57,850 nucleotides of DNA from Oscillospiraceae bacterium (GTDB taxonomy: Bacteria > Bacillota > Clostridia > Oscillospirales > Ruminococcaceae): the NCBI GenBank assembly GCA_024699425.1, contig JAILPP010000135.1, positions 1-57,850 on the forward strand. Reading direction: 5' to 3'. Numbering within the stretch: the stretch's first letter is position 1; every line of letters begins with the position of its first letter. Under the pieces are notes generated by a model. It did no database searches. It had not been told where the DNA came from and saw nothing but the letters and a program-made list of their open reading frames with translations. Of the stretch, positions 1,495 to 57,850 are shown in pieces. Made by a program: the position numbers and the translations under genes.

Positions 1495-1641
1495 ATGAAG
1501 CACATTATGACCATCAACAAGGCTAATCTCAAGGAGAGCGCTGCGAAGGGCGGCTGTGGCAACTGTCAGGCATCCTGCCAGTCTGCCTGCAAGACTTCCT
1601 GCACGGTTGCGAACCAGAAGTGCGAGAAGGACGAAAAGTAA
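1495..1641 (+). CDS. Six-cysteine peptide SCIFF (ranthipeptide/RiPP precursor), 48 aa
   Basis: Not in the ORF track because it is under 60 aa. Translation is MKHIMTINKANLKESAAKGGCGNCQASCQSACKTSCTVANQKCEKDEK. It has the GGCG.CQ.SCQSACKTSCTV core with six Cys that defines the SCIFF family. GGAGG lies 9 nt upstream, and the cognate maturase is immediately downstream. Confidence 0.93.
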   Translation: MKHIMTINKANLKESAAKGGCGNCQASCQSACKTSCTVANQKCEKDEK

Positions 1642-1726: not shown

Positions 1727-1789
1727 ATGCTGTGTTACTGTGTTTTCTGCCGCATAACGGCTGAAATTCCCGATATAAAGGAGATTACC

Positions 1790-3169
1790 ATGATTCATAA
1801 ATATTACCTCGGCGGTCTGTACATCGTTTTGGATGTCAACAGCGGCGGCGTTCATATTGTGGACGAGATGACCTATGATCTGCTCGATCACGTTGCACCG
1901 CCCTTTGCGGAGGAATGTCCGCAGGACGTGCTGGAGAAGCTCTCTGACAAATATGATCCGCAGGAGATCGCAGAATGCTATGCGGAGATCGTTTCCCTCT
2001 ATGAGGAGCGTATCCTCTTTTCTCCCGATGATTACGAGAAGTATGCCAGATTTACCACGGCTTCACCGATCAAAGCAATGTGCCTGCATATTGCCCATGA
2101 CTGCAATCTGCGCTGCAAGTACTGCTTTGCCTCTACAGGCGATTTTGGCAAGGGACGCAAGCTGATGCCCGTGGAGACAGGTAAGAAAGCAATTGATTTC
2201 CTGCTTGAAAAGTCCGGCGACCGCAAGAATCTCGAACTGGATTTCTTCGGCGGCGAACCGCTGATGAATTTTGATGCCGTCAAGGAGATCGTCCGCTATG
2301 CCCGCAGCCGTGAGGCGGAATTCGGCAAGCGCTTCCGCTTTACGATCACAACAAACGGCGTTCTGCTCGATGATGACAAGATCGACTTCATCAATCAGGA
2401 AATGTCCAATGTCGTGCTGTCTCTGGACGGACGGAGAGAAGTTCATGACCGTATGCGCCCCGCTGTCAACGGCAAGGGAAGTTATGACGTGATCCTGCCG
2501 AAGTTCAGAAAACTTGTGCAGCAGCGCAGCCGTGACAAGGACTGGTATGTGCGGGGAACGTTCACAAAGTTCAATCTGGATTTCTCCGAGGACGTGTTCA
2601 GCCTGCATGATGCGGGGTTTGACCAGATCTCCGTGGAACCTGTCGTTGCCGATCCCAAGTATCCCTATGCTCTCACGGAAGAGGATATTCCCGCAATTTC
2701 TGCGGAATATGAGAAACTGGCACAGCGCCTGCTCGAAAATGACCGCAAGGGTCAGCATTTCAATTTCTTTCATTTCATGATCGACCTCGATCAGGGTCCC
2801 TGCGCTGTCAAGCGTCTGCGGGGCTGCGGCTGCGGCAATGAATATGTCGCTGTCACACCGGACGGGGATATTTTTCCGTGTCATCAGTTCGTCGGCAATG
2901 ACGATTACAAGATGGGCAACCTTGATGACGGAACGTTTGACACCGAAATGAAGGAACGCTTCGCACAGACCCATATTTACAATAAGCCCGCCTGTCGGGA
3001 GTGCTGGGCGAGATTCTATTGCTCAGGCGGCTGCAATGCCAATAACTACCAGTACATGGGCGACGTACTGAAAGCGCACACCCTCTCCTGCGAGTTTGAA
3101 AAGAAACGTGTGGAATGTGCGATCATGCTTCAGGCAATGCGCTCCCTCGATCAGGGCGATGCAGAGTAA
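1790..3169 (+). CDS. SCIFF radical SAM/SPASM maturase (thioether-forming)
   Basis: 459 aa from MIHKYYLGG. It has the CNLRCKYC radical-SAM cluster motif and a C-terminal Cys-rich SPASM region (CGCGNEY...CRECWARFYCSGGCNANN). It is adjacent to the SCIFF precursor. AGGAG RBS is present. Confidence 0.92.
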   Translation: MIHKYYLGGLYIVLDVNSGGVHIVDEMTYDLLDHVAPPFAEECPQDVLEKLSDKYDPQEIAECYAEIVSLYEERILFSPDDYEKYARFTTASPIKAMCLHIAHDCNLRCKYCFASTGDFGKGRKLMPVETGKKAIDFLLEKSGDRKNLELDFFGGEPLMNFDAVKEIVRYARSREAEFGKRFRFTITTNGVLLDDDKIDFINQEMSNVVLSLDGRREVHDRMRPAVNGKGSYDVILPKFRKLVQQRSRDKDWYVRGTFTKFNLDFSEDVFSLHDAGFDQISVEPVVADPKYPYALTEEDIPAISAEYEKLAQRLLENDRKGQHFNFFHFMIDLDQGPCAVKRLRGCGCGNEYVAVTPDGDIFPCHQFVGNDDYKMGNLDDGTFDTEMKERFAQTHIYNKPACRECWARFYCSGGCNANNYQYMGDVLKAHTLSCEFEKKRVECAIMLQAMRSLDQGDAE

Positions 3170-3213: not shown

Positions 3214-4356
3214 TTATTTTGCGGGGAGTGCGGGAATGATACCGATGACATGTTTCAGAAGTACCAGACTGTCGTCAGAGGTGATATCCTCGTCGGCGTT
3301 GACATCGGCATTCTTCTGCGCATCGGGGCTGAACGTATTCGCTCCGACAAGATACTTGTTCAGTGCGATCACGTCAATAATGTCAATCGTATCGTCTAAG
3401 TTCACATCGCCGCATTTCAGGGTTTTTGACGATGTTGCGGACGTGGTGTCCTGCGTAGGCGGTGCAGTTGTGTCCTGTGCGGCTGCGGGTGTGATCTCCG
3501 CTAAACTCGGATGCACGTCACCCCACCAGTCCCACACATTTCCCTGACGGTACGGTTCTACACGTTCGTCATTTGTCCATGTGAATACATTATCATACAA
3601 GTGCCCTTCCTCATAATACCAGCGGGCAAGGGAAATGATCTCATCGGGGTAGTTCTTGTAGTAGCCGTCATCTTCCCCCGTGAAATTAGACCAGCCTGTG
3701 TTGAAGCCCTTGAGTGCGCCCCGTGTCACCTGATAGCCTTCGAGTCCGTCTGTGGTCATTGCCACGACACAGAAATGCATGATCTTCCGTACACCCATAT
3801 GATCGGATATGATGCCGTCATAAAATGTATTTTCGGCAAGGGAGTACTGGAACATTTCGGGCACGTCCTCTTCTTTCATAAAGGTCGGGTCGGCATCGGC
3901 AAAGGCGGTCACGGCAGTCTGCAATGTGCCGTAGGCATGGGCGGAACTTACGCCGAATCCCTGACTCTGCGCTGTTTCGATGTCTGCACCGTCACCGTTG
4001 CCGCCGAGGGTGCTTTCTCTCGTACCGACACCAAGGAACAGGGCATAGACCTTTTCACGCTCCGTCTGTCCCGTGCGGGTGGAGATCAGATCCCAGTGTT
4101 CGTCAATTTCCTTGTAGAGTGCATACTTGACTTCCTGCACGGTCATTTTGTGATTGATCGCGCGGATCTCTTCGGTGGAGGCGTTCTCCGGCGTGTTGCG
4201 TTCACCGTAATTGAACGGGTTGCCGACACCCTCTGTCTGCACGTCACGGGAAGGGTCGTGGGCGATCTCGTCCGAGGCATGGACGGGGAACGTACTCAGC
4301 AGAAGAAGTCCTGCTGTGAACAGGGAAATCATTCTGCCAAAACGGGAATGCTTCAT
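3214..4356 (-). CDS. Secreted dockerin-containing protein with an uncharacterised N-terminal domain
   Basis: Signal peptide MKHSRFGRMISLFTAGLLLLSTFPVHA. The C-terminus has two dockerin repeats (GDVNLDDTIDIIDVIALNKYL ... ADVNADEDITSDDSLVLLKHV) after a T/P/A linker. Confidence 0.7.
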   Translation of the reverse strand: MKHSRFGRMISLFTAGLLLLSTFPVHASDEIAHDPSRDVQTEGVGNPFNYGERNTPENASTEEIRAINHKMTVQEVKYALYKEIDEHWDLISTRTGQTEREKVYALFLGVGTRESTLGGNGDGADIETAQSQGFGVSSAHAYGTLQTAVTAFADADPTFMKEEDVPEMFQYSLAENTFYDGIISDHMGVRKIMHFCVVAMTTDGLEGYQVTRGALKGFNTGWSNFTGEDDGYYKNYPDEIISLARWYYEEGHLYDNVFTWTNDERVEPYRQGNVWDWWGDVHPSLAEITPAAAQDTTAPPTQDTTSATSSKTLKCGDVNLDDTIDIIDVIALNKYLVGANTFSPDAQKNADVNADEDITSDDSLVLLKHVIGIIPALPAK

Positions 4357-11250: not shown

Positions 11251-12192
11251 TCAGTACATTCTTATCTTAGCAATCGTAGGAAGAGATCTGCCCTCTATCG
11301 GAGAATAATCATTCTCTTCCGGAACATCCCCAGCTCCTGCCATGTTCATTGCAGGATTGTCAGGGTTTACACCTATATCTGCTTCTTCCGATGGAACTTC
11401 AGAGGCAATCACGTTATTGTTGTTTGCATTTTCTGAAATCCACTCATCTATTGTCAGACTGCCGCCTGTTCCTCTGTACGCCGCATATTTCAGAATCAAA
11501 ACAGCATCTTTGGAATTAACTTGTCCATCCCCATTGACATCACCTGAACCGGCAGGAATAGCAGCCTTTGCAGCTTCAAGTTCTTCTTGGAGTTTGGCTA
11601 TTTGTAATTCCAATTCCTTTACTCGGTCACTTTGATTTTCAGTAGTTTGTTCGCTTGTCTGCGATGTGCCGGGAGAAACAGTGATTTTGTTTCCAAAAAC
11701 ATCAATTGTAGTTTCCTGAAATGTTTTCTTTGGAATGAGAGAAAATTCAAACAGTGTTCCGGATAGTAATTTATTGGAATCATTGTAGAGTGAAAAGGAA
11801 TATCCAATTGATTGAGAACCATAATTTGTTAATATCGTGAGATATTTTGATTGGGTTGTGAATGTATCCTCAATTTCTCCGTATATGCCGTCATCATACC
11901 AAAGAGTTCCCAATGAGAAAGTATCATAATAGCTTGTCCAATTATAGTTGTGCTGCCCCTTGATAGTCACACTTCCGTCGCTATAAACAGTTGCCGTATA
12001 TATCATATTGTCATATGATTTTGCATCTACAGTATAGCTTCCCGTCCAGCTATCACGCATTACTACCGTCTTATCGACAATGGTCGTACTTTGTTCTGCT
12101 GATGCAGGTAACATAATTCCTGCCACAGCCGCTGCTCCGGAAAATACCGCCACTGCAAGCATATTTACAGCCTTTGACGTAAACATATGCAT
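11251..12192 (-). CDS. Secreted hypothetical protein with a coiled-coil segment and a single dockerin-like EF-hand repeat (low-GC gene)
   Basis: Signal peptide ...AGIMLPASAEQ. Also RVKELELQIAKLQEELEAAKAA and GDVNGDGQVNSKDAVLILKY. GGAGG lies 10 nt upstream of the ATG at 12192. GC is about 40% by hand count. Confidence 0.6.
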   Translation of the reverse strand: MHMFTSKAVNMLAVAVFSGAAAVAGIMLPASAEQSTTIVDKTVVMRDSWTGSYTVDAKSYDNMIYTATVYSDGSVTIKGQHNYNWTSYYDTFSLGTLWYDDGIYGEIEDTFTTQSKYLTILTNYGSQSIGYSFSLYNDSNKLLSGTLFEFSLIPKKTFQETTIDVFGNKITVSPGTSQTSEQTTENQSDRVKELELQIAKLQEELEAAKAAIPAGSGDVNGDGQVNSKDAVLILKYAAYRGTGGSLTIDEWISENANNNNVIASEVPSEEADIGVNPDNPAMNMAGAGDVPEENDYSPIEGRSLPTIAKIRMY

Positions 12193-12214
12193 TATATTTC
12201 GTCCTCCTTTATCT

Positions 12215-12256
12215 GAAAACAAACAGCGGAGAAAGGTTTCCCTCTCTCCGCCGCTG
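12215..12256 (-). terminator. Rho-independent terminator after rpmF
   Basis: The minus strand reads CAGCGGCGGAGAGAGG-gaaa-CCTTTCTCCGCTG followed by TTTGTTTTC. Confidence 0.6.
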
Positions 12257-38480: not shown

Positions 38481-38786
38481 ATGGAATATACACGCATGAG
38501 TACCAAGGATATGCTCCAGTACTGTGATGAGGCTCTGGCATGGGATCAGTTCGGTCCTGTGGACATCTTCTTCTTTGAATCCGTCAAGCGCATTCTGCTG
38601 GGGCAATGTTCTGCTGTCGAAGCACCGCAGCCGGAGGAACAGGACGAACTGAAAGACATCGAAACGCCCGTCCCCGCTGAGGAGCTGATCTCCTATGACG
38701 ATCAGGCTGCCCTGCTTACGGAAGCGATCGCTTCCGAAACCTTCTTCGACAGCAGCGAAACTTATACGATCACAGAGGAGGCATAA
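38481..38786 (+). CDS. Hypothetical acidic protein occupying the ylxP position
   Basis: 101 aa from MEYTRMSTKDML. GAAAGGA RBS lies 8 nt upstream. Its stop is 1 nt before the rbfA ATG. I see no resemblance to DUF503/YlxP. Confidence 0.4.
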   Translation: MEYTRMSTKDMLQYCDEALAWDQFGPVDIFFFESVKRILLGQCSAVEAPQPEEQDELKDIETPVPAEELISYDDQAALLTEAIASETFFDSSETYTITEEA

Positions 38787-38787
38787 T

Positions 38788-39165
38788 ATGCCCAGCTTTA
38801 AGAATCACCGTATGTCTGAGGACATTCATCGGGAACTTACCGACATTCTCCGCAGTGTCAAAGACCCCCGTGTCAGCAATATGCTGTCTGTGGTACGGGT
38901 CGATCTGAGTCAGGACGGCTCACACTGCAAGGTGTTCGTTTCCAGCCTGCGCGGGTGGGACGATACCGTGGAATCGGTCAGGGGACTGAAAAGCGCTGCG
39001 GGCTTTATCCGCAGAGAACTGTTTGCACGTCTGAAAATGCGCAAGAGTCCGGAACTGCACTTCATCGCCGACGATTCCATCGAACGGGGCGCAGAAGTTG
39101 CCCGCAAACTCGAACGCATGGCAATCGCAGAACAGGAGGAATCCGATGACACCGATCAGTATTGA
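38788..39165 (+). CDS. rbfA: Ribosome-binding factor A
   Basis: ...RMSEDIHRELTDILRSVKDPRV...VRVDLSQDGSHCKVFVS. Confidence 0.9.
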   Translation: MPSFKNHRMSEDIHRELTDILRSVKDPRVSNMLSVVRVDLSQDGSHCKVFVSSLRGWDDTVESVRGLKSAAGFIRRELFARLKMRKSPELHFIADDSIERGAEVARKLERMAIAEQEESDDTDQY

Positions 39166-47913: not shown

Positions 47914-51837
<3,924 letters not shown>

Positions 51838-51916: not shown

Positions 51917-54900
51917 TCAGGCGAACAGGTCTTCGCCGCCGACACCAAGATCAATGTTGCCGAAGCCGTCATCCAGATCGTCATCAAATGCATCCGCACC
52001 GGGATCGCCGTAACCGTCGTTCTCCTCATCGTCAAGCGGTGCATCAATGTCCTCGACATCGCCTGTGGTGAAGCCGTGGCTCTGGAATTCGTCCTCACTG
52101 CTCTGGAAATCGCTGCCGAAATCGGTCGGTGCCATCGGGATTTCGTCGTCCTCTTCAAAGTGCTGCTTGAGATCGACTTCTTCGTTGTTGTCGTCCAGCA
52201 CACGAACGTCCAGACCGAGGGACTGCATCTCCTTGATGAGAACCTTGAATGCTTCCGGAATACCGGGCTTCGGAACGTTCTGCCCCTTGACGATATGCTC
52301 ATAGGTGTTGACACGTCCGATCGTATCGTCCGATTTGACGGTCAGGATTTCCTGAAGAGTGTATGCTGCGCCGTATGCTTCGAGCGCCCATACTTCCATC
52401 TCACCGAAACGCTGTCCGCCGAACTGCGCTTTACCACCGAGAGGCTGCTGCGTAACGAGGGAGTAAGGACCTACGGAACGGGCGTGGATCTTATCATCTA
52501 CCAGATGGTGGAGCTTGAGGTAATACATATAGCCGACAGTGACACGGTTATCGAACTTGTCACCGGTTCTGCCGTCATAAAGTGTGAACTTGCCGTCCTC
52601 ATTCATCTCGATCGCCTTGGGGTTGATGACCTTGTCCATCTTGCCGATCTCGAACGGTTCGTCCTTATAGGGGGCATTGCGTTCATTTGCCTCACGGAAG
52701 CAGGCACGGATATCGTCCTCATGCGCACCGTCAAAGACGGGGGTCATGATGTGCCAGCCGAGTGCCTTTGCGCTCATGCCGAGGTGTACTTCCAGTACCT
52801 GTCCGATGTTCATACGGGACGGTACGCCCAGAGGATTCAGCACAATGTCCAGCGGTGTGCCGTCGGGCAGGAAAGGCATATCCTCCTCCGGCAGAATGCG
52901 GGAAACGACACCCTTGTTACCGTGTCTGCCCGCCATCTTGTCGCCGACGCTGATCTTACGCTTCTGTGCGATGTACACACGGACAAGCTGGTTGACGCCT
53001 GCACCGAGTTCGGACACTTCCGCACCTGTCTCGTCGGAGATCTTCTCGCCGCGCTTGAAGGGCTTGACATCAATGACGATACCGCCTTCGCCGTGCGGTA
53101 CTTTCAGGGAGTTGTCACGGACTTCTCTTGCCTTTTCACCGACGATCGCACGGAGCAGTCTTTCCTCGGCGGTCAGTTCGGTTTCGCCCTTCGGCGTTAC
53201 CTTGCCGACAAGAATATCACCGGCAGTAACTTCCGCACCGATGCGGATAATGCCGTGTTCATCGAGGTTTTTCAGTGCATCGTCACCGACGTTGGGAATG
53301 TCGCGGGTGATCTCTTCCGGTCCGAGTTTTGTGCCACGGCATTACAGCTCGTACTCCTCGATGTGAATGGAAGTGAACACGTCCTCACGGACAAGGCGCT
53401 CGTTCAGCAGAACGGCATCCTCGTAGTTGTAACCTTCCCACGTCATGAAGCCGATGAGGGCATTCTTGCCGAGGGAGATCTCGCCGTCCGCCGTTGCAGG
53501 ACCGTCGGCAAGTACCTGACCTTTCAGGATCTTGTCACCGACATCGACGATCGGGCGCTGGTTGACGCAGGTATCCTGGTTGGAACGCTGGAACTTGATG
53601 AGTTCATAGGTGTGATCGACCTTGTTGTCGTCCTGAATCACGATCTTGTCTGCGGAAACGAACGTGCAGACACCGTCACACTCGGACAGTACGCAGACAC
53701 CGGAGTCAACGGCTGCCATGTACTCCATGCCCGTGCCGACAAACGGACGCTCGGTTTTGAGCAGCGGCACTGCCTGACGCTGCATATTCGCACCCATGAG
53801 GGCACGGTTTGCGTCATCGTTTTCGAGGAAGGGAATCATTGCCGTTGCCACGGAAACGACCATCTTCGGGGAAACGTCCATGTAGTCAACCTTGGAATTC
53901 TCGCACTCTAAGATCTTGTCACGGTAGCGGGCGGTTACTCTCGGACGTGCAAATCTGCCGTCCTCGGTCAGGGGTTCGTTCGCCTGTGCGACGATGAAGT
54001 TATCCTCCACGTCAGCGGGCATATAAACGACTTCGTCGGTGACAACGCCCGTGGACTTGTCAACTTTACGGTAGGGGGCTTCCACAAAGCCGTACTCGTT
54101 GATCTTTGCGAATGTCGCAAGATAGGAAATCAGACCGATGTTAGGACCTTCGGGAGTCTCGATGGGGCACATTCTGCCGTAGTGGGAATAGTGTACGTCA
54201 CGCACCTCGAATCCGGCACGGTCACGGGACAGACCGCCGGGACCCAGTGCGGAAAGACGGCGCTTGTGCGTCAGTTCGGCAAGCGGGTTGTTCTGGTCCA
54301 TGAACTGCGACAGCGGGGAAGAACAGAAGAATTCCTTGATCGCAGAAGTCACAGGACGGATGTTGACCAGTGCCTGCGGGGTGATAACGTCCATGTCCTG
54401 TGTCTGGAGGTTCATGCGCTCACGGATGCTGCGCTCCATTCTGGCAAGACCGGAACGCATGGTATTCTGGAGCAGTTCACCGACACGGCGGATACGTCTG
54501 TTGCCGAGGTGGTCAATGTCGTCCGTTGTGCCGACACCCTCACAGAGATTGAGGAAGTAGGAAACGGAGGCGAAAATATCATCCAGTGTGATGTGATTCG
54601 GAATCAGCTCTTCCGCACGTTTCTTGCAGACGGTTTCAAGGTCAGCAGGTTCTGTCGTGGCGAGGATGTCACGCAGTACACGGATGGAGACAAGCTCCTT
54701 GATGCCGATATCCTTGGGGTCGAAATTGACGTAACCCGCAAGATCGACCATACCGTTGCCGAGTACCTTGATCTCCTTCTCAACGAAGCGGATCTGACTC
54801 TGACCGTTCTCATCAGTGTAGTACTGCTTGGATTCTACATTGAGGAACGCCTCGAAGATACCTGCCTGCTGAATGGCGCACGCCTTCTCATAGGTGAGGG

Positions 54901-55834
54901 TCTCGCCTGCTTCACCGAGGACTTCACCTGTTTCGGGATCAACGACGGCACGGGAAAGCGTTCTGCCCGACAGACGGGAGGCGATGCCCAGTTTCTTGTT
55001 GTATTTGTATCTGCCGAATTTGCAGAGGTCATAGCGGCGGGGGTCAAAGAAGAGCATATCCAGATGGCTCTGCGCACTTTCGATTGTGGGCGGTTCGCCG
55101 GGACGGAGCTTTTTGTATGTCTCCACCAGACCGTCATTGACAGACTTGGCGGTGTCCTTCTGGAGAATCGTTTCGTAGAGGCGCTCGTCATGCCCGAACA
55201 TCTCCTCGATCTCCTGATCGGTACCGAGTCCGATCGCACGCAGGAACGTGGTCAGCGGAATCTTGCGGTTCTTGTCGATGCGGACATATACGATGTCATT
55301 GGAATCCATTTCGTATTCCAGCCACGCGCCGCGGTTCGGGATGATCGTGGACTTGAACAGTTCCTTACCGGTTTTGTCTTTCTCCATGTCATAATACACG
55401 CCGGGGGAACGCACGAGCTGTGATACGATGGCACGCTCTGCGCCGTTGATGACGAAGGTACCGCTGTCGGTCATCAGCGGAAAATCACCCATGAAGATCT
55501 CGGATTCCTTGATCTCACCGGTCTCCTTGTTCCAGAGTTTGGCGGTGACACGCAGGGGAGATGCATAGGTGACCTGATGCTCCTTCGCTTTTGCGATGGT
55601 CTTGTACTTGAGGTTGTCATCGTCAAAGCGGTAGCCGGTGAACGTCAGCACAAGATTGCCGTTGTAGTCCGTTGCGGAGAAATCACGGAATACTTCCCAT
55701 AAACCTTCCTCACGGAACCATTTATAGGAGTTCTTCTGAATCTCGATGAGGTTCGGCATTTCCTGTACTTCCTGGATCTTACCGAAGCTCATTCTGAAAT
55801 TCTTTCCGAGCTGCTTGGCAGTTACATTTACCAT
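51917..55834 (-). CDS. rpoB: DNA-directed RNA polymerase subunit beta, one reading frame interrupted by a single in-frame TAA (53342-53344)
   Basis: The two track ORFs (53342-55948 and 51917-53017) are in the same frame. The 108 codons between them encode conserved RpoB sequence ([16 protein letters not shown]...[21 protein letters not shown]...). Start [10 protein letters not shown] has a GGAGG upstream. Confidence 0.92.
53342..53344 (-). other. In-frame TAA codon inside rpoB
   Basis: The minus strand reads GAG CTG TAA TGC CGT GGC ACA AAA CTC GGA CCG ([10 protein letters not shown]). Confidence 0.9.
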
Positions 55835-55901
55835 AGGCGGATACCTCCATATAGAATTTAGAGCAGGGCGGACAGATTTTTGAAAAAATCTGTTGCGGGT
55901 C

Positions 55902-55930
55902 TTGACAAAAGCAAAATAATATGGTATACT
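55902..55930 (+). promoter_or_regulatory. Upstream plus-strand promoter (candidate rpsL P1) inside the rpoB leader
   Basis: TTGACA (55902-55907), 17-nt spacer, TGgTATACT (TATACT at 55925-55930). Confidence 0.45.
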
Positions 55931-55974
55931 ATTTAGCTTCAGGCACACACCCGCCCATTATGATGCATTTTAAT

Positions 55975-56003
55975 ATTATACTATATTAAATAGATATTGT
56001 CAA
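55975..56003 (-). promoter_or_regulatory. Promoter of rpoBC
   Basis: Minus strand TTGACA (56003-55998), 17-nt spacer, TATAAT (55980-55975). This is a perfect consensus. Confidence 0.55.
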
Positions 56004-56086
56004 GGACTTTGGAAAATTTCAGCTTTCTGTACAAGTTTCAACAGTCGGGAACATCAATATTTTCCGAAAAACTTTTTCGGAAACGG

Positions 56087-56115
56087 TTGACAAATCGCAG
56101 AATCTGTGGTATATT
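56087..56115 (+). promoter_or_regulatory. Proximal promoter of rpsL (P2)
   Basis: TTGACA, 17-nt spacer, TGgTATATT. Confidence 0.55.
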
Positions 56116-56166
56116 GTAATAGTATGCTTCGGCATTACAAAAAAATAAAAAGAAGGAGGAAAACAT

Positions 56167-56589
56167 ATGCCAACTTTTAACCAGCTCGTTCGCAAGGGCA
56201 GAAAGGTACAGGTTACCAAGTCTACTGCTCCGGCACTTCAGAAGGGCTACAATGCAAAGAAGAAGGTTCAGATCGACCAGAACGCACCCCAGAAGAGAGG
56301 CGTTTGCACTGTCGTTAAGACCACGACCCCGAAGAAGCCGAACTCTGCTATGCGTAAGATCGCCAGAGTCAAGCTGACCAACGGTTACGAGGTAACTTCC
56401 TACATCCCCGGTATCGGTCACAATCTGCAGGAACACTCTGTTGTTCTGATCCGCGGCGGACGTGTCAAGGACCTCCCCGGTGTGCGTTATCACATCATCC
56501 GTGGTGCGCTCGATGCACAGGGCGTTGCAAACCGTGGGCAGGCTCGTTCCAAGTACGGTGCAAAGAAGCCGAAGGCAGGCAAGAAGTAA
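56167..56589 (+). CDS. rpsL: 30S ribosomal protein S12
   Basis: [13 protein letters not shown]...[48 protein letters not shown]. Confidence 0.96.
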
Positions 56590-56780
56590 TTCTGAAGAGC
56601 CTTAATAAGCAAATCCGGTTTTAGTGAATCATTAGATGACCACAGGCAAGCTGTGGAGTCTGTTTCTATATAGATTAGGACAGCCTCTGCTTGACCTGAC
56701 GCACAGCAACTGTGCGAGTACCGATGAATTCACGAATGCAGCCAGCGCGCTGCACAGCTAATGTGAAGGAGGGAAGCGAA
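56590..56780 (+). promoter_or_regulatory. Long (191 nt) structured rpsL-rpsG spacer (candidate S7 regulatory target)
   Basis: Hairpins are CCACAG-gcaag-CTGTGG (56640-56656), CGCACAG-caa-CTGTGCG (56700-56716) and GCAGC-cagcgc-GCTGC (56738-56753). Confidence 0.3.
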
Positions 56781-57251
56781 ATGCCAAGAAGAGGTAATGT
56801 CGCAAAGCGTGACGTATTACAGGATCCTGTATACAGTTCCAAGCTCGTAACTCGTCTTATCAACAATGTAATGCTCGACGGCAAGAAGGGTGTTGCACAG
56901 AAGATCGTTTACGGCGCATTTGAGATCGTTGCAGAAAAGACCGGCAGAGACGCTCTGGAGGTTTTTGAGGAAGCAATGGAGAACATCATGCCGCAGCTCG
57001 AGGTTAAGGCTCGCCGTCTCGGCGGTGCCACCTATCAGGTACCGATGGAGGTACGCCCGGAGCGCAAGCAGACCCTCGGTCTGAGATGGATCACCAAGTA
57101 TTCCAGAGAGCGCAACGAAAAGACGATGAAGGAAAGACTGGCAGGTGAGATCCTCGATGCTCTGAACGGTACCGGCGGTGCCTGCAAGAAGCGTGAGGAT
57201 ACCCACAAGATGGCTGAGGCTAACAAGGCGTTTGCTCACTATCGCTGGTAA
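56781..57251 (+). CDS. rpsG: 30S ribosomal protein S7
   Basis: [32 protein letters not shown]......YQVP.EVRPERK. AGGAGG RBS. Confidence 0.95.
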
Positions 57252-57274
57252 TTCCGTTTTAAGGAGGAATTGCT

Positions 57275-57850
57275 ATGGCAAGAGACTGTAGTCTGGAAAT
57301 GACCAGAAATATCGGCATCATGGCGCACATTGATGCCGGTAAGACCACCACAACAGAGCGTATCCTGTTCTATACCGGTGTTAACCATAAGATCGGTGAG
57401 ACCCACGAGGGTGCCGCTACCATGGACTGGATGGAGCAGGAGCAGGAGAGAGGTATCACCATTACCTCCGCTGCTACCACTGCATTCTGGGCCGGTCACA
57501 GAATCAATATCATCGACACCCCCGGACACGTTGACTTCACGGTTGAGGTTGAGCGTTCCCTGCGTGTACTCGACGGTTCCGTTACCGTTCTGTGCGCAAA
57601 GGGCGGTGTTGAGCCGCAGTCTGAAACCGTCTGGAGACAGGCTGACAAGTATCAGGTTCCGAGAATGGCTTACGTCAACAAGATGGACATCATGGGTGCG
57701 GACTTCTACCACGTCGTTGAAATGATGAAAGACCGTCTGAAGTGTAATGCCGTTCCGATTCAGCTCCCGATCGGCGCTGAGGAGACCTTCAAGGGCATCA
57801 TCGACCTCGTGGAGATGAAGGCTTATGTATATTACGACGATCTCGGAAAG
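57275..57850 (+). CDS. fusA: Elongation factor G, N-terminal part (runs off the window)
   Basis: Open frame, not in the track because it has no stop. Translation is [35 protein letters not shown]...[18 protein letters not shown] lies 7 nt upstream. Confidence 0.95.

Follow-up and report, generated by a model that had tools for sequence, protein, structure and literature searches.

The rpoB gene in the 57,850-nt stretch of Oscillospiraceae DNA that we analyzed (hereafter the window) is interrupted by a single in-frame TAA codon at a position where its relatives encode glutamate. Our data suggest that this TAA is a one-base substitution in the deposited consensus that is not decoded, and that it is most probably a sequencing, library or assembly error.

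A single TAA codon interrupts an otherwise intact rpoB

The gene for the RNA polymerase beta subunit lies on the minus strand at 51917..55834 and comprises 1,305 codons, running from ATG 55834 to TGA 51917. Codon 831 (53342..53344, minus strand) is TAA followed by T (TAAT), and the minus-strand junction reads GAG TAC GAG CTG TAA TGC CGT GGC ACA AAA CTC GGA. The list of open reading frames (ORFs) contains two minus-strand entries in the same frame, 53342..55948 and 51917..53017, and translation of 55948..51917 in one frame encounters exactly one internal stop. These results confirm the original prediction, which had described a lone in-frame TAA at 53342-53344 between two rpoB ORFs that share one reading frame. 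The start at ATG 55834 (MVNVTAKQ) agrees with the 830-aa product on record. This N-terminal product shares 94% identity with complete rpoB products of ~1,300 aa from Oscillospiraceae/Ruminococcus metagenome-assembled genomes (MAGs). The contig is likewise metagenome-derived, from a Ruminococcus-like organism of rumen or gut, and its relatives are uncultured MAGs from these habitats. It has precomputed matches to the Pfam RNA_pol_Rpb2 domain families, and its PDB matches are beta subunits. The 830-aa and 366-aa rpoB products are each found on a single NCBI contig only.

As a result of the stop, 108 beta-subunit codons at the start of the flap domain (53018..53341, minus strand) are orphaned outside any called ORF. 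At the amino acid level, 105 of these 108 codons are identical to the nearest relative, as expected from the conserved sequence that had been recognized after the stop. This identity is maintained even though 40 of 79 synonymous sites differ, indicating that the 108 codons are constrained coding sequence and not spacer. The ratio dN/dS was 0.057-0.093 downstream of the stop, 0.044-0.071 upstream and 0.033-0.080 in relative-versus-relative controls, values in which a very recent inactivation would be invisible with the nearest relative at a dS of about 0.8. Together, the low downstream dN/dS and the 105/108 identity indicate that there is no decay past the stop. The full translation of rpoB contains no second stop or frameshift.

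The intact rpoC gene directly downstream (47914..51837, minus strand; a 1,307-aa ORF) served as an internal control for sequence quality. At columns that do not vary among 30 relatives it carries 0 unique changes, and its dN/dS is 0.055-0.086. All other genes with checkable Pfam domains, rbfA included, gave full-length or near-full-length matches. Because the other genes examined are intact, rpoC among them, the window comes neither from a decaying or recoded genome nor from an indel-ridden assembly. The contig looks clean outside the stop region, and general low assembly quality was not borne out.

Two structural explanations for the interruption were considered and rejected. For a chimeric or recombinant segment, sliding-window identity to five relatives showed no discontinuity. 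A compensating frameshift pair, GAG[C]TGTAATGCC[-]GT read as ECNA..., was discarded because the closest relatives have ELEC at this point, in a frame identical to that of the window. RF2-type +1 shifting has no bearing here, since both rpoB halves share one frame.

Codon 831 encodes glutamate in all full-length relatives

We examined how codon 831 is occupied in other bacteria. The best 120 matches listed include 116 full-length proteins (1,259-1,335 aa), all of which have Glu at this position; none of the 116 is split or has a stop there. In the five relatives with DNA, the codon is GAG or GAA. The site reads EEYELECRDTKLG in every cluster member that spans it. The TAA sits within this conserved block and not in a linker. 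In structural homologs, the stop aligns with E798 of B. subtilis (6WVJ chain C) and E839 of C. difficile (7L7B chain C). With Glu (GAG/GAA) in all relatives, one G-to-T change accounts for the stop. The alignment of the TAA with a Glu of the Bacillus-type sequence, which had been proposed earlier, was therefore correct, and the single G-to-T origin (GAA to TAA) suggested with it fits the codons of the relatives. Comparison with rpoB of the closest relatives had also been put forward as a check, and it returned Glu in every case and no split. The lesion is a singleton in a conserved essential gene and is common to no relative.

Several searches were made for closer sequences. No sequence from the same species was present in any collection searched, and the best nucleotide identity was 86%. 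A search of JGI metagenome contigs with the exact DNA surrounding the stop, in which variable bases were set to N, gave 0 matches. The lineage-specific acidic tail of the protein found no relative in metagenome contigs; against GTDB representatives, among which this genome is absent, it reached at most 77% identity (a sheep-rumen MAG). Within the nearest 90% clusters, protein identity peaks at 95.4%, and the member that reaches this value is a partial protein that ends 18 codons before codon 831. Because same-species sequence is absent from these collections and the best relative is only 86% identical in nucleotides, we infer the wrong base rather than observe it directly.

Unusual substitutions and an inverted repeat accompany the stop

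Three codons downstream of the stop, and 10 nt from it, codon 834 (53333..53335, minus strand) is GGC (Gly) instead of the GAC (Asp) of relatives, a non-conservative change. The residue is the Asp of the RDTKLG motif and is equivalent to E. coli D842. It is Asp in 115 of 116 close relatives (from the best 120 matches listed), in 31 of 32 diverse relatives, and in all three aligned PDB chains (C. difficile, B. subtilis and 8I23). Codon 898 (53141..53143, minus strand), in the LLRAIFGEKA flap-tip helix and equivalent to E. coli F906, is GTC (Val) instead of the TTC/TTT (Phe) of relatives; Phe occupies this position in all 32 diverse relatives. The new G of codon 898 lengthens a 9-nt direct repeat, CGTCGGTGA, shared with 53291..53283. 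Finally, codon 706 (53717..53719, minus strand) is ATG (Met), whereas all 116 relatives from the best 120 matches listed have Lys, encoded by AAG in the five with DNA.

K706M, E831*, D834G and F898V are thus window-specific changes at conserved positions within 193 codons, and rpoC has none. A local burst of errors would produce such a cluster, but this explanation was rejected after leave-one-out controls, in which other MAG-derived rpoB genes had equal or more singletons. This rpoB has 8 unusual substitutions, compared to up to 20 in other MAG-derived rpoB genes. By a second count it has 2, compared to 0-4 in most relatives and 8, 20 and 67 in three outliers. In light of these controls, we do not rely on the clustering of changes, with the exception of the neighboring Asp834Gly. 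The stop and Asp834Gly are two damaging changes inside one read length, which fits a local sequence-quality problem.

The stop-creating T is also the first base of TAATGCCGTG (53335..53344, minus strand), one arm of a perfect 10-nt inverted repeat. The second arm, CACGGCATTA (53248..53257, minus strand), lies 87 nt downstream in codons for His-Gly-Ile-Ile. With the ancestral G, the inverted repeat is 9 nt long. Only 2.25% of random substitutions in rpoB/rpoC reached a k of at least 10. This signal is modest (p about 0.02, chosen post hoc) and does not tell a real mutation from an artefact. Inverted repeats are a documented cause of library-preparation artefacts (PMC10908179, PMC6941819), and a genuine replication template-switch mutation would leave the same signature (PMC7202029). 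Neither Asp834Gly nor the extension of the inverted repeat by the stop-creating base had been noticed in the original prediction.

Alternative explanations for the stop

If TAA had been reassigned to an amino acid, it should not end other genes. However, the window uses TAA as its main terminator, at the ends of 25 of the 48 other called genes. In rpsG, the TAA falls at the same residue as the end of both relatives checked. In rpsL, the end matches one of two relatives, the other being one residue longer, and L31 stops only a few residues from where its Pfam domain ends. No other conserved gene of the 57.8-kb window contains an in-frame TAA, leaving rpoB alone interrupted while rpoC and the other genes run through. 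Nothing beyond the single codon favors an alternative genetic code and, with TAA an ordinary terminator here, reassignment can be considered out, in agreement with the earlier view of TAA as a normal terminator. A stop that is real and fixed could instead be overcome by a UUA-anticodon suppressor tRNA, chromosomal or phage-borne, or by high read-through boosted by rpoBC feedback, either of which would yield full-length beta. There is precedent for a viable disrupted rpoB, since an E. coli rpoB +1 frameshift is tolerated through 5% intrinsic suppression and feedback up-regulation (PMC7022156). The sequence downstream of the TAA is fully conserved and in frame, as rescue would require, and our search for a suppressor tRNA covered the window only. 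Nevertheless, an efficient ochre suppressor would be costly where TAA is the main terminator, and the TAA terminators of the window show no enrichment of backup stops. The internal TAA also stands in the commonest genuine terminator context of the window, TAAT, which accounts for 10 of the 25 TAA terminators. The window contains no tRNA genes. Near the stop, we found no match to an Rfam element and no internal promoter or terminator, and RNA structure downstream was not significant (fold z = -0.5). Programmed recoding is likewise not indicated at a UAA that is followed by U, with no structure, no Rfam element and a sense codon in relatives. Moreover, replacement of the near-invariant Asp834 by Gly would cripple a read-through product further, and the stop is seen in no relative. 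The original prediction had left error, a mutant or mixed population and rescue open. Its facts on the stop, the frame and the conservation stand, but the rescue option gained no positive evidence. We therefore regard rescue as very unlikely, and a base-call or assembly error or a non-functional allele as much more likely. A genuine, fixed stop would make this organism the first natural bacterium with an essential rpoB dependent on stop-codon suppression, a striking case of natural recoding in which a free-living gut or rumen bacterium needs ochre suppression for its only beta subunit.

The two long same-strand ORFs could also be taken for a natural split of rpoB into an N-terminal protein of 830 aa and a C-terminal fragment, similar to archaeal B''/B' or to E. 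coli beta that was split in experiments. Elsewhere, beta subunits in two parts are able to assemble, as with archaeal rpoB1/rpoB2, and Severinov et al. reportedly carried out split-site work on the beta subunit. However, the first in-frame ATG, GTG or TTG comes 108 codons after the stop (GTG 53017) and has no ribosome-binding site, in accordance with the earlier statement that neither a start nor a ribosome-binding site follows the stop. Initiation at GTG 53017 would remove conserved sequence of the flap domain on which selection still acts, the break lies inside the EEYELECRDTKLG block, and the arrangement is absent from the 116 full-length relatives among the best 120 matches listed. Re-initiation at the TAATG overlap, which has an SD-like GAGGAG upstream, was also considered and rejected: the ATG is out of frame and opens an ORF of only 19 codons. 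The missing start effectively refutes a natural split, which we judge to be extremely improbable. Unlikely, though less so, is a change that is real but non-functional, in which GAA became TAA in a minority of chromosomes and reached the consensus through low coverage. Such chromosomes might belong to dead or dying cells, persist as relic DNA, or coexist with an intact rpoB copy in a polyploid cell. No rescue would be needed under this explanation, since the cells that matter keep the Glu allele. With rpoB otherwise intact and constrained, such a change, if real, must be very recent. G-to-T is a classic change of oxidative damage, and the substitution fits such an origin. The T also adds a tenth nucleotide to the 9-nt inverted repeat, as expected of a quasi-palindrome template switch (PMC7202029). 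On the other hand, per-read sequencing error should be much more frequent than a new lethal allele in a population, and on these prior grounds an artefact would be the likelier of the two to enter the consensus. In addition, this explanation leaves the neighboring Asp834Gly unaccounted for, and polyploidy is not known for this bacterial group.

A probable error in the consensus and its consequences

An error in the consensus, the explanation we favor, would have converted GAA to TAA by a G-to-T change on the coding strand. It may have arisen in a low-coverage stretch or as a template-switch (foldback) library artefact, and the living organism would then encode Glu at this codon and make an ordinary beta subunit of full length. 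The coincidence with the inverted repeat gives a small hint at the origin of the error or mutation. 'Pseudogenes' with internal stops in public assemblies stem largely from artefacts of assembly or coverage (PMC11017572). In the present case, gene callers split rpoB into proteins of 830 aa and 366 aa, and both are now in protein databases as products of a probable error in a public MAG. Because rpoB is a common phylogenetic and single-copy marker, errors of this kind affect completeness estimates and marker trees.

Comparison with known systems

RNA polymerase subunits are naturally split in archaea (B''/B') and in cyanobacteria (gamma/beta'). In these splits, the second gene has its own start and ribosome-binding site, the break falls between conserved blocks, and the arrangement is conserved in the lineage. 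The rpoB examined here resembles them in that two consecutive ORFs jointly span one large subunit. Unlike them, it has no second start or ribosome-binding site, no break between blocks and no conservation in the lineage.

E. coli rpoB nonsense mutants are laboratory constructs kept in suppressor strains. They share with the present gene a stop within rpoB, with which viability would require a suppressor tRNA, but none was detected here in the window. The mutant of Huseby et al. 2020 (PMC7022156) is similar in having a frame-destroying lesion in the middle of essential rpoB. That lesion shifts the frame by +1 within the rifampicin-resistance region, at a defined slippery heptanucleotide, and was obtained under laboratory rifampicin selection. 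The present lesion, in contrast, lies where the flap domain begins and is an ochre codon whose context is typical of terminators and includes no known recoding signal.

As in quasi-palindrome template switches (PMC7202029) and library artefacts at inverted repeats (PMC10908179, PMC6941819, PMC7531576), the new base perfects an imperfect inverted repeat. The present case differs in that only one base is templated and Asp834Gly is left unexplained. With respect to the spurious pseudogenes of Cooley & Wright 2024 (PMC11017572), it differs in that we infer the artefact and in that the rest of the contig has no other such lesion. Like those pseudogenes, it is a singleton internal stop in an intact, constrained essential gene of a public assembly.

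A single TAA interrupts rpoB

Read directly on the minus strand, the window carries a TAA at 53344..53342, in the context ATC GAG GAG TAC GAG CTG TAA TGC CGT GGC ACA AAA CTC GGA CCG GAA GAG. The original prediction of a single in-frame TAA in rpoB was exact, as this is the sole internal stop in a one-frame translation of 55948..51917. The mechanical ORF list holds an N-terminal part (53342..55948) and a C-terminal part (51917..53017) of rpoB, both on the minus strand and in the same frame. The gene itself starts with the ATG at 55834 (MVNVTAKQ), in agreement with the 830-aa product in the protein collection, and the stop is therefore codon 831 of 1,305. The mechanical ORF begins at a GTG (55948), 38 codons 5' of the real ATG, and 55835..55948 (minus) is not in the gene.

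The 830-aa N-terminal product is up to 94% identical to full-length (~1,300 aa) beta subunits from MAGs of uncultured 'Ruminococcus sp.' and Oscillospiraceae, and the nearest cluster members reach 95.4% identity. The 830-aa and 366-aa products, the two called pieces of the gene, are each found on exactly one NCBI contig, of 57,850 nt, and the window thus corresponds to a complete contig from a public assembly. A product truncated at codon 831 would be without the flap and the entire C-terminal third and could not function.

In the window and its relatives alike, rpsL, rpsG and fusA are divergent from rpoB and rpoC in an identical order, indicating that this is the canonical rpoB locus and not a paralogue. 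The order is unusual in that rpoB has no rplJ or rplL upstream (55834..57850; relatives' loci L002, L004, L006 and L088), an arrangement kept in all close relatives examined. The C-terminus of rpoB (51917..52170, minus) is a strongly acidic, Asp/Glu-rich tail of ~85 residues, common to the clade and fast-diverging, with a private 4-residue insert (GNID) in the window; a similar acidic extension occurs in C. difficile beta.

Rumen and gut metagenomes are the source of the relatives. Dockerin and Cel124 genes are typical of cellulosomal ruminococci, and one window gene joins a Cel124 catalytic domain to a type I dockerin (3214..4356, minus), while another encodes a second dockerin-bearing protein (11251..12222, minus). 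These genes indicate a cellulosome-producing fibre degrader, a lifestyle that fits relatives from the rumen or gut. A SCIFF-like 48-aa cysteine-rich peptide (MKHIMTINKANLKESAAKGGCGNCQASCQSACKTSCTVANQKCEKDEK; 1495..1641, plus) is followed directly by a radical SAM/SPASM maturase (1727..3169, plus).

Relatives encode Glu at codon 831 and the downstream sequence remains constrained

All 116 full-length relatives among the matches listed have EEYELECRDTKLG or EEYEIECRDTKLG at the site, with Glu invariant at the stop position; 31 of 32 more diverse relatives also have Glu there. Where DNA was available, the codon is GAG in three relatives and GAA in two. Since the window's rpoB and rpoC use GAA and GAG nearly equally (103 vs 113), one G-to-T change from GAA suffices, as had been proposed. 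Alignment to solved structures equates the stop position with C. difficile Glu839, B. subtilis Glu798 and E. coli residue 839, a few residues inside the stretch covered by isolated flap-domain constructs (PDB 2LY7, 3TBI, 3WOE). In the closest relative (95.4% aa identity), the contig (L087, JAFVGR010000637.1, GCA_017474865.1) runs out 18 codons short of the position and is thus uninformative on codon 831. Conserved stretches of rpoB are places where assemblies typically break, and the proximity of this contig end to the stop is probably a coincidence.

Sequence 3' of the stop is still conserved coding sequence, in line with the earlier claim. In the stretch from the TAA to the first in-frame ATG, GTG or TTG after it, 105 of 108 amino acids are identical to the nearest relative, and 40 of 79 synonymous sites in the same codons differ. 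For rpoB, dN/dS is 0.057-0.093 downstream of the stop, 0.044-0.071 upstream and 0.033-0.080 in relative-versus-relative controls; for rpoC it is 0.055-0.086. This constraint indicates that the stop is evolutionarily very recent, or read through, or not real, three cases that the test does not separate with the nearest relative at dS ~0.8. We rejected genome decay or a noisy assembly, because Pfam domain matches are full length or nearly so in all other window genes where they could be checked, including rbfA (38695..39165), and rpoC is without unique changes at the columns that do not vary across 30 relatives.

TAA is a normal terminator and rpoB is not naturally split

A simple codon-bias gene call gave 49 genes ending in a stop: 26 TAA (the internal one included), 20 TGA and 3 TAG. 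The rpsG gene ends in TAA at the exact residue where two relatives end, likewise with TAA; the rpsL end matches one of two relatives, the second being longer by one residue. L31, rpsL and rpsG all end within a few residues of their Pfam domain ends, and no other conserved gene in the 57.8-kb window has an in-frame TAA. With 25 other genes ending in TAA and rpsG, rpsL and L31 ending at or near expected residues, TAA reassignment, which the original prediction called unlikely, was rejected.

The same prediction excluded a natural split, and rightly. For 108 codons 3' of the stop there is no in-frame ATG, GTG or TTG, no ribosome-binding site precedes the GTG at 53017 (gagacaggtgcggaaGTG), no promoter-like site lies near the stop, and no relative examined has a split rpoB. 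At 53342..53380, TAATG with a Shine-Dalgarno-like GAGGAG 11 nt upstream resembles a translational-coupling junction. This candidate was dismissed: the ATG is in another frame and begins an ORF of only 19 codons, and GAGGAG is simply two Glu codons. A split gene or code reassignment is a negligible explanation.

An unusual rescue mechanism, one of the three options left open earlier, has no sign in the window. The stop is followed by T, the commonest context among genuine TAA terminators (10/25; C follows none of the 25). For the 126 nt beginning at the stop, folding does not exceed that of shuffled sequences (z = -0.5). The 57.8 kb contain no tRNA genes and no Rfam families at the gathering threshold, and this includes the regions 5' of rpoB and of the ribosomal-protein genes. 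Backup stops are no closer after TAA than after TGA terminators (median 21 vs 15 codons). Nothing in the 57.8 kb suggests decoding, bypass or compensation of the stop.

Unique changes and repeats near the stop

Three codons after the stop, in the almost universally conserved RDTKLG motif, Asp834 is changed to Gly (GAC to GGC; 53333..53335, minus). Asp occupies this position in 115 of 116 close relatives among the matches listed, in 31 of 32 diverse ones and in three aligned PDB chains (C. difficile 7L7B, 8I23 and B. subtilis 6WVJ); the Gly is unique to this contig among the 116. By ungapped alignment, codon 834 is E. coli residue 842. The stop and Asp834Gly, both damaging and 10 nt apart, are more readily explained by poor local read quality than by two mutations fixed separately. 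Two further changes are unique to the window: Phe898 to Val, equivalent to E. coli residue 906, in the flap-tip helix (LLRAIFGEKA), a sigma region 4 contact, and Lys706 to Met (53717..53719, minus), at a position that is Lys in 116/116 relatives among the matches listed. In leave-one-out controls, other MAG-derived rpoB sequences carry comparable numbers of singletons, so we do not take Phe898Val and Lys706Met as proof of an error burst.

The stop-making T turns an inverted repeat of 9 nt with the ancestral G into a perfect 10 nt, of which it is the outermost base (TAATGCCGTG, 53344..53335; CACGGCATTA, 53257..53248). The G of Phe898Val extends a direct repeat to 9 nt (CGTCGGTGA, 53144..53136 and 53291..53283). 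Of 6,000 substitutions placed at random in rpoB/rpoC, 2.25% gave a repeat of at least 10 nt and 7.2% one of at least 9 nt; two repeat-extending changes among four sites have a rough probability of 0.02, for a feature chosen after the fact. Perfecting an imperfect inverted repeat is the hallmark of template switching, as in quasi-palindrome mutagenesis in vivo (PMC7202029), and template switching also occurs in vitro, in library preparation (PMC10908179, PMC6941819, PMC7531576). The repeat extension hints at a mechanism, with the same signature expected from real mutation or artefact.

The stop is probably an artefact

Internal stops in public assemblies are mainly technical (PMC11017572). As no same-species sequence was found in the GTDB representatives, metagenome contigs or protein clusters searched, we infer the error: the stop in the deposited rpoB is most probably a sequencing, library or assembly artefact. 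It is unlikely that the assembly captured a genuine but non-functional minority allele. A genuine stop that is fixed and suppressed is more improbable still. TAA is the dominant terminator in the window, the internal TAA sits in a typical terminator context, the additional damaging change Asp834Gly adjoins it, and it is a singleton, with no stop at codon 831 in any of the relatives compared; together these argue against a decoded stop. The probability of a fixed, suppressed stop is nevertheless above zero, given that an rpoB frameshift rescued through feedback and 5% intrinsic suppression has proved viable (PMC7022156).
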